NCBI GenBank assembly: GCA_034667725.1
Contig: JAXDQS010000010.1
Location: forward strand, 64,001-128,000
Origin: Thermoplasmata archaeon
GTDB lineage: Archaea; Thermoplasmatota; E2; JACPAO01; JAHFTW01
Direction: 5' to 3'
DNA length: 64,000 nucleotides
Positions 12,089-13,062 of the stretch are shown here, one piece after another. Made by a program: the position numbers and the translations under genes. How positions within the stretch are numbered: position 1 is the first letter of the stretch; each line of letters opens with the position of its first letter. Under the pieces are notes generated by a model. It was not told the origin of the DNA, searched no databases, and saw only the letters and a program-made list of their open reading frames with translations.

Positions 12089-13062
12089 TGCCCTCGCCAG
12101 GGTCGAACGGTCGTTTCCTGGAACCGGCCATTGGTCGGTCGGTGGCCGCCGCCCACGCTGAACGGTCGGTCGGTGGTCGGTTGCTTGGTCGGCCGGTTCC
12201 CGCTCATCACTTGGTCGGTCGGTCGCATGGTCGGCCGGTTGGTCGGTTGAACGGTCGGCGGGCGTGGTTTCCGGCGCCGCCGACCATTCGACCCTGGCGA
12301 GGGTTGGATGTTCGCACGCCGCGCCATGCCCGCTGCGTTCGCGTTCGTTCGCGTCCGCCAGGAGGTTCTTCCGTGTTCGTTCGGCGTTCGCAAGCCCACG
12401 CGAACACGCGCCCGCGAACGGCGGACCCTGGCCAGGGCATCGTGTTTGGCAAGGCGCAGCCGGGCCTCCAGCCAGCCAAGGGCTCCATTCAGCCAGCCAC
12501 CCGCCGCCAGCCAGCCAACCAATCAATCAGCCCCAGGAAGCCCGGCCAATCAATCGGCCAGCCTGCCAGCCAGCCACCCGGCCAGCCGCGCCCCCCACCC
12601 ACTTCACCAAACAGCCAGCCAGAGGCCGCGCCAAACACCGGACCCTGGCGAGGGTCGCGTGTCCGCACGACGCGCGGACAGCCATGGGGACGCGGACACG
12701 GGGACGCGGACAAGGACAGGGACGCGGCCGGTCGCGGACAAGGACACGGACCAGGAAGGGAAGCGTCCCGGGACGGCCACGCGGACACGGACAGGGACGC
12801 GGACAAGGACAACCCCACCCTCATCGGGGACAAGGCTGCGGACAGCCATGCGGACACGCGACCCTCGCCAGGGTCGCAGCGCCTTATCAACCACCAGTCG
12901 CCGCCGAGTCGTGGAGTCGCTTTTGGCGAACTTGTGGCTTTGTGTCAGAACGAGCCACGCGGGCACCATGCGCCGCAACCGAAAACCGCCCATCGCCTCC
13001 ATGGACGGCTTTCGCTCCCATGCGTGCCTTTCTGCCAGAAGCCGCCAGGGGCGCGGCCATGA
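12088..13062 (+). CDS. Low-complexity ORF spanning the palindrome array (may be non-coding)
   Basis: Open frame coupled by TGATG at its 5' end and ATGA at its 3' end; protein is disordered-looking. Confidence 0.35.
   Translation: MPSPGSNGRFLEPAIGRSVAAAHAERSVGGRLLGRPVPAHHLVGRSHGRPVGRLNGRRAWFPAPPTIRPWRGLDVRTPRHARCVRVRSRPPGGSSVFVRRSQAHANTRPRTADPGQGIVFGKAQPGLQPAKGSIQPATRRQPANQSISPRKPGQSIGQPASQPPGQPRPPPTSPNSQPEAAPNTGPWRGSRVRTTRGQPWGRGHGDADKDRDAAGRGQGHGPGREASRDGHADTDRDADKDNPTLIGDKAADSHADTRPSPGSQRLINHQSPPSRGVAFGELVALCQNEPRGHHAPQPKTAHRLHGRLSLPCVPFCQKPPGARP
12090..12875. repeat. Five ACCCT-N4-AGGGT sites enclosing four low-complexity cassettes
   Basis: Sites at 12090, 12291, 12425, 12642, 12861; 27-bp perfect IR 12641-12667/12849-12875; 23-bp IR (1 mismatch) 12091-12113/12281-12303. 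Confidence 0.85.

Follow-up and report, generated by a model that had tools for sequence, protein, structure and literature searches.

A four-cassette array of short repeated DNA words in an archaeal transposon, probably a set of conserved protein-binding platforms

A transposon of an uncultured soil archaeon, whose relatives bear the labels Thermoplasmatota or Thermoplasmata, carries an array of four cassettes, each some 200 bases of non-coding DNA packed with its own word of four to six letters. The array, which lies in the 64,000-nucleotide stretch analysed here (the window), is real and above chance level, and its cassettes are probably conserved protein-binding platforms, because patches of this kind, built from other words, occur in related transposons and proviruses. 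As far as comparison of sequences goes, it is a selected, family-wide feature of which the window holds an unusually tidy example.

Results

Architecture of the array

Five sites of the form ACCCT-N4-AGGGT delimit the array, with the cores given in the initial annotation: site 1 at 12090–12103 (CGCC), site 2 at 12291–12304 (GGCG), site 3 at 12425–12438 (GGCC), site 4 at 12642–12655 (GGCG) and site 5 at 12861–12874 (CGCC), sites 1 and 3 having one outer mismatch each. All five contain a central GC, and the left arm of site 1 and the right arm of site 3 have a variant base plus three further flanking bases in common. Allowing at most one mismatch, the dyad occurs seven times in the 64 kb against 1.26 expected, five of the seven falling inside 785 nt; the exact form has three matches in the 2.3-Mb genome, all three of them in the array. 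A degenerate sixth dyad at 11396–11409 (one arm mismatch, core GGGC) may be a chance match. Across the genomes of relatives the dyad is not enriched, occurring about as often as a reversed control. The array is not an assembly artefact, as a Logan assembly of the probable source run reproduces positions 9000–12920 in a single contig with zero differences and no alternative joints.

The intervals, 120–205 nt of simple sequence with tandem runs of 4- and 6-nt period, hold four distinct fillings, as had been claimed. Cassette M1 (12104–12290, minus strand) has 13 copies of CGAC, mostly as CCGACC, one inverted copy and 23-nt matching ends; M2 (12305–12424, minus strand) has eight of GAAC, with two inverted copies at its start, and contains CCAGGAG; M3 (12439–12641, plus strand) has 12 of CCAG, mostly as GCCAGC; and M4 (12656–12860, plus strand) has 19 of GGAC between perfect 27-nt inverted ends. 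Word enrichment per cassette reaches a Poisson log10P of −6 to −15. The initial annotation had also given every interval its own inner inverted repeat. Such repeats are present, 12091–12113/12281–12303 (23 nt, 96%) and 12641–12667/12849–12875 (27 nt, 100%) beside the short ones, but these two include the delimiter, and the inner repeat is mainly one inverted copy of the cassette word. This copy sits 4–6 nt inside one end and is always the same word variant as its own cassette.

Two extra word patches without clear delimiters lie at 10975–11345 (CGCCT, 16 copies; AGGTC, four), with the motif CAACAGGAG in each. Genome-wide, CAACAGGAG is 2.5-fold more frequent than Markov expectation (for example at 11089 and 11318 of the window, C3:224001, C3:629074 and C1:297534); many copies lie between genes, close to promoters or tRNAs and in the middle of word patches, and others are Leu-Leu-Leu codons.

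The insertion and its genes

Seven congeners have the GTPase gene (4696–5814) directly adjoining the orthologue of 16468–17886, and the stretch from about 5.9 to 16.5 kb of the window is therefore an insertion of ~10.6 kb, absent in these genomes. It contains cargo genes, the two extra word patches, the zinc-finger gene ZnF1, the array, a second finger gene (ZnF2), an intact transposase and a core-less paralogue of it. The array stands between the two C2H2 zinc-finger genes and ahead of the SWIM-DDE transposase. Some 6 kb of the insertion lie on one side of it and 3.6 kb on the other, and it is therefore internal, in the leader of the ZnF2–transposase unit. One 20-mer marks both boundaries as a direct repeat on the plus strand (5941–5960 and 16478–16497); it is lacking in the empty sites, is found behind the dead paralogue in both L134 and L067, and may be the true end of an element without inverted repeats. 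A further copy, at C1:271757, has a tRNA-Asp-like gene some 170 nt away. A search of 12 leader/end pairs of the element family for terminal inverted repeats came back empty, and no Rep or initiator gene was found among the insertion ORFs scanned with Pfam and NCBIfam.

A promoter-like family box of the TAGGTTGGC type (11535–11545, plus strand) stands upstream of ZnF1 (P0002; 11588–12088, plus strand), which encodes a C2H2 finger, a Pro/Ala linker and a C-terminal WGRLPG, its stop abutting site 1; a homologue search with ZnF1 gave no matches. Beyond the array, a TATA-like box (12884–12890, plus strand) is, from its spacing relative to eight homologous leaders, the putative promoter of the ZnF2–transposase unit. 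The AGGGT of site 5 lies 9 nt upstream of it, in the position where these eight leaders have a GGGT-like element, 8–9 nt upstream of their own TATA-like box. ZnF2 (13235–13435, plus strand) encodes a short C2H2 protein and is the orthologue of the finger gene before the C1 transposase.

The transposase (13432–15015, plus strand) is intact and IS4/IS5-like, with an RNase H fold and a D-D-E triad of invariant D236, D356 and E420; Tn5 is the best structural match (E 3e-3, probability 1.0). Its IS5-like profile match is below cut-off, and DDE_Tnp_1 is found in homologues. The terminal inverted repeats of an IS4/IS5-like insertion sequence were not found, the insertion being bounded by the direct 20-mer. 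The paralogue without a catalytic core (15003–15905, plus strand) is conserved in C1, L067 and L134, differing from that of L134 by 78 synonymous and 55 non-synonymous codon changes. In L135, a finger gene and a truncated enzyme of this dead-paralogue type occur alone, beside a Wadjet-like locus.

The array does not read as coding DNA

An ORF at 12088–13062 runs through the array, and the initial annotation pointed out that it would stay open on inversion of cassette 1 or 4. This is correct and carries no weight as evidence: shuffling leaves this frame open in 28% of cases and at least one plus frame open in 75%, so openness is expected by chance and the argument from ORF retention is void. 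The in-frame hexamer score is 0.75 for genes and −0.12 for ZnF1, itself of low complexity; for the array ORF it is −0.99. It is scarcely credible that this ORF specifies a genuine disordered protein of 324 aa whose translation is coupled to that of ZnF1 and of the downstream genes. Its start and stop overlap the adjoining ORFs, and a TTAGCC patch in C1 is an overlapping open frame as well; nevertheless, in addition to the hexamer score and the sufficiency of chance, the word phase shifts inside cassettes, the reading frame is not preserved between M4 and its C12 homologue (C12-D), and there is no Pfam match.

Two paralogous arrays in the same genome

Two further arrays, at C1:265300–264940 and C12:59435–60340, have the same cassette types in other orders and orientations. 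The C1 unit has the same gene order, and its GAAC, TCAG, GGAC and CGAC cassettes follow a gene with the same WGRLPG terminus; the C12 array is transposase-less and has GGAC, CGAC, CCAG and GGAC cassettes, its patch C being the homologue of M3 and its patches D and A colinear with M4. Variable cassette order and content, which the initial annotation predicted for homologous arrays, are thus seen in two paralogues within one genome and, together with the family patches described below, reveal an array that is neither unique nor invariant nor absent from homologues.

Seven cassettes have the inverted word at +5/+6. Word strand is uniform in C1 and C12, with M1 and M2 flipped in the window array, and neat dyad delimiters occur in the window copy only, decayed ones being retained in C1 and C12. 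Inverting the block between sites 1 and 3 would yield uniform orientation and an order fitting both paralogues; another possibility is that M1–M2 was inserted into a single dyad, whose two halves survive as the variant arms of sites 1 and 3. On either account we infer past rearrangement of the cassettes at the dyads, whether through the transposase or through recombination between the 14–27-nt repeats.

Searching 38 genomes of the order with the array DNA gave only chance matches outside this genome. A two-site pattern run against genome and viral collections returned CRISPR-like repeats, tandem repeats and two phage genes, and no homologous array; two cyanobacterial CRISPR-like arrays (L127 and L128) have a repeat that contains the site 3 dyad, which we judge coincidental, and flank alignments of the pattern matches were low-complexity noise and were set aside. 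CRISPR, TIGR and integron arrays were rejected as models, there being no constant-length foreign spacers or gene cassettes, no cas, tas or intI among the scanned genes and no Rfam match. A patch between finger gene and transposase is seen in close relatives (TTAGCC at C1:264140–263800, TTGCC at L067:440–830); it is absent in L134 and in the window.

Words are conserved and swapped in concert

The colinearity of M4 and C12-D exceeds what their common 4-mers explain (z 10.5), and the spacings between words agree for the first four and the last two. In this comparison GGAC positions mismatch at 4–5%, against 43% elsewhere. In L091 and L097, an orthologous pair from different samples, ACCCT positions mismatch at 0–8% against 28% elsewhere, a non-word rate equal to that of adjacent third codon positions (30%). 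The CCAG pair (13–22% against 26–29%) is not convincing; words were defined in one sequence, a bias of up to about twofold that is far below the GGAC contrast and comparable to the CCAG one. Slippage or conversion homogenizing the copies could alternatively account for word conservation.

Words also change together. From M4 to C12-D, GCGGAC goes from 8 to 0 and GGGGAC from 3 to 12 (p 3e-4). In the orthologous ZnF genes of two proviruses, AGGCG/ATGCG counts are 33/2 in one and 9/25 in the other (p 3e-9), on both strands and in coding DNA, with no such difference in the rest of both proviruses. Restriction-site avoidance was considered and rejected: words occur near Markov expectation (TCAG, at 0.63, excepted), and outside the swapped region the two proviruses, which carry methylases, have the swapped words alike. 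Four-base words recur every 40–130 bp in the host genome, so specificity could come from density only.

A family of transposons and proviruses

In 15 of 18 elements a word patch is present between −1300 and +700 nt relative to the finger gene; these elements are kin and so do not amount to 18 independent trials. As controls, 42 of 300 random windows have a patch (14%), about half of these 42 being a host repeat family, as do 14 of 62 windows from flanks (23%). Family words include GCACCCT, ACCCA, GAACTG, GCATC, CCTAG, GAGAC and TTAGCC, often around CAACAGGAG or CCAGGAG. In L042, L036, L092 and L094 the patches lie inside the coding linker of the ZnF gene. Exact ACCCT-N4-AGGGT dyads occur also in the leaders of L089 and L091 and in an orphan patch cluster (L047:6560–8300, G017:C1); this cluster has four patches (GAGAC, GGTACC, GAACCC and GACCCC) with the exact window dyad and stands beside a type I restriction locus. 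For L067 and L134, the closest relatives, the sequence breaks off within the finger gene, leaving arrays outside the readable part.

Among the members are several proviruses that encode a P-loop ATPase and a double-jelly-roll capsid protein, the finger gene being early and the transposase last. L042, L079, L081, L088, L092 and L094 are Thermoplasmatota proviruses of about 9–10 kb (for example L092:2247–11434), composed of an optional DNA methylase, a zinc-finger gene, the ATPase, the capsid protein and a tail-end SWIM-DDE transposase, with no recognizable Rep or integrase. Their capsid protein matches PM2 P2 and STIV (E about 8e-9); no transposase relatives were found in viral_contigs. PM2-like (Vinavirales) prophages with a DDE transposase are known from gut bacteria, where HGV-2 carries an enzyme of the IS630 family (PMC9502842). 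The likeness is that relatives of the window element are double-jelly-roll proviruses in which a DDE transposase is the only evident integration enzyme; they differ in the archaeal host and the SWIM-IS4/IS5-like enzyme, and the window copy is without capsid genes. The Thermoplasmatota elements, ranging from double-jelly-roll proviruses to capsid-less cargo transposons, are apparently a previously undescribed family: in a literature search of incomplete journal coverage we found no description of the array layout, the archaeal element family or the word patches.

Assigning a reader to the words failed, neither the transposase tree (L092 and L094 have different words with near-identical putative recognition helices) nor the finger helices predicting the word. 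Finger helices have Gly/Ala at the canonical base-contact positions, similar helices accompany different words, and helix residues show no clear co-variation with words. A divergent gene of ~215–260 aa accompanies most GCACCCT/ACCCT leader patches (L039, L041, L068, L091 and L097) and is a candidate reader for this word; it gave no Pfam or PHROG match in the two members scanned.

Defence genes very often adjoin elements of the SWIM-DDE family (flanks of L070, L089, L091, L092, L095, L082 and L135), among them type I, IIG, III and ISP restriction, McrBC-like and Wadjet-like loci. The host also has REP/BIME-like repeats at 55009–55466, 58409–58455 and 60261–60660 of the window, with units of ~117 nt whose core is present 136 times across the genome, in 38 clusters, and a second family, REPIN-like, of 77 copies in 20 clusters. 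REP/REPIN sequences with a RAYT were rejected as a model for the array, its dyads not being multi-copy genome-wide. In this 90%-complete genome we found no Y1 transposase and no reverse transcriptase, which leaves both templated synthesis by reverse transcriptase and RAYT mobilization without an enzyme.

Rival origins and functions of the cassettes

Prokaryotic MITEs and tandem IS-end insertions are ~200-nt non-coding units with inverted ends, found beside a DDE transposase. The array could be a stack of such units with ends (C/G)AGGGT...ACCCT(G/C), each placed beside earlier ones at a 2-nt GC joint by the DDE transposase encoded nearby. The GC common to all sites could be a 2-nt duplication; M1 and M4 are short units whose inverted ends match (23 and 27 nt); between sites 1 and 3 the variant arms share an 8-nt match, as an M1–M2 insertion predicts; order and orientation vary among the paralogues; and the intact transposase is 560 nt away. 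We nonetheless consider a MITE stack unlikely: transposase-carrying elements do not end in dyad arms and no terminal inverted repeats were found, the ends of the insertion are a different direct 20-mer, M2 and M3 have unmatched ends, the interior is a word array, there are no dispersed copies (three arrays only, with no solo cassette bearing such ends elsewhere in the genome), and word conservation is left unexplained. A genome-wide search for MITE-like pairs retrieved the delimiter in M1 and M4 only, the remainder being GC-rich noise. Such stacking is compatible with protein-binding platforms, as the way in which the array was built. The initial annotation had also raised shufflon-like inversion, in which a site-specific invertase flips cassettes at the dyads and so varies a protein or promoter. 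As in the R64 shufflon (Rci/sfx; PMC11852207), several segments in both orientations are parted by repeated sites; the cores of sites 1/2 and 4/5 are inversion-compatible, and inversion of M1+M2 between sites 1 and 3 would restore the C1/C12 orientation. The sfx sites, however, are asymmetric and 31 bp long (12+7+12), against symmetric 14-nt sites with arms of 5–6 nt here, and there are no alternative gene ends and no adjacent tyrosine invertase, the genome's only tyrosine recombinase match being about 48 kb away and its only resolvase on another contig. The array is covered from end to end by one contig, at a depth of about 11, in which no inverted joint is seen, although contigs drop rare variants. 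With no recombinase nearby, sites too short, no inverted contigs and an ORF that is non-coding by hexamers and uninformative in its retention, the proposal fails on most counts and is very improbable.

Neutral cryptic simple sequence is distinctly unlikely. Here slippage or template switching would amplify a seed word in an unconstrained leader or in decayed linker codons, and duplication would spread it, a process consistent with the 4- and 6-nt tandem runs, the patches in coding linkers of four elements and the empty search for a word reader. Against it stand the inverted copy fixed at +5/+6 in seven cassettes, word slots conserved amid divergent spacers, similar cassette lengths, restriction to one element family, and a perfect 27-nt repeat maintained even though M4 predates the C12 split at about 68% identity. 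CsrB and RsmZ are sponge RNAs with about 20 GGA-containing words in about 200 nt, and with CAGGA motifs, a density and motif that the array resembles. A structured RNA or single-stranded DNA whose stems expose many single-stranded words as a protein sponge is, if anything, a little less probable than neutral sequence. RNA folding is better than in shuffles for the whole array (z −3.0), M4 (z −7), M1 (z −3.7) and C12-A (z −5), the inverted copy matches its own word variant, and the array could be co-transcribed behind ZnF1. However, folding as DNA gives z −0.2, the homologues are inconsistent (C12-C and C12-D fold no better than shuffles, at z 0.5 and 0.0), words are not in individual hairpin loops as in CsrB/RsmZ, other cassettes use other words, those of M1 and M2 are on the opposite strand to those of M3 and M4, patches occur also within genes and in both orientations, and there is no Rfam match or known transcript. 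The structured-RNA alternative in the initial annotation is therefore weak at best.

Discussion

The array is most like iteron or subterminal-repeat arrays, yet fails both comparisons, having no initiator, no AT-rich region and no terminal position. The lambda origin is an iteron array. Arrays of the same type, at lambda-O-type phage and plasmid origins, include that of phage KIRK gene 0043 (PMC7924643). In these, as here, clustered short element-specific repeats lie in or beside a gene for an N-terminal DNA-binding domain and low-complexity linker, and the two actinophage-type genes retrieved by our site pattern have similar dyad words in coding DNA. The array differs in that no Rep/initiator or helicase loader was found, there is no AT-rich unwinding element (minimum GC 52%, against 55% for random sequence), and the words are only 4–6 nt, with several of them stacked as cassettes. 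In hAT elements, subterminal repeats are bound by the zinc finger of the transposase, as in Tgf2 (PMC4890040); in both systems one element combines zinc-finger proteins with a DDE transposase and has a short word scattered through it in 15–20 copies. Our element, by contrast, is archaeal, its enzyme is IS4/IS5-like with a Tn5 fold, its fingers are in separate genes and its repeats are internal, with no terminal inverted repeats or 8-bp duplication found.

Of the alternatives in the initial annotation, the bank of iteron-like sites is the best supported, through word conservation and the family-wide patches. That the cassettes are dense multi-site, cis-acting platforms for a protein, similar to iterons or hAT subterminal repeats and with the dyads as operator-like joints, is a tentative reading to which we give a little under an even chance. 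Each cassette would display 8–19 copies of one word, plus the inverted copy at its start, to a DNA-binding protein, and many close weak sites could together assemble an element-specific nucleoprotein complex. Such a complex might act in transcription of the ZnF–transposase operon, in transpososome assembly or, in the viral ancestors, in packaging. The ACCCT/AGGGT dyads would be an operator-like motif of the family as well as joints where cassettes were added, lost and flipped over evolutionary time, and the platforms would belong to a SWIM-DDE transposon family that includes transposable double-jelly-roll proviruses. We infer both protein binding to the words and any role of the complex; the main weakness of the platform reading is that transposase tree and finger helices fail to predict the word.

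It is also conceivable, though we think it improbable, that the cassettes of these archaeal transposons and transposable jelly-roll proviruses are exchangeable 'barcodes', fixed slots being rewritten in concert with a new word while the DDE transposase stacks cassettes at GC joints, so collecting specificities. Such rewriting and stacking, on both strands and even through coding DNA, would, if true, represent a previously undescribed mode of creating and exchanging cis-acting DNA specificity.

With the natural word-swap pairs, L092/L094 and M4/C12-D, binding is open to direct testing by means of small recombinant proteins, and the patches offer a natural test case for the co-evolution of cis sites and their reader, and for concerted evolution at the scale of 4–6 bases. 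The array also illustrates how a mobile element might label its DNA, through dense patches of short words that switch between close relatives, here in a Thermoplasmatota family that uses a SWIM-DDE transposase without recognizable inverted ends.
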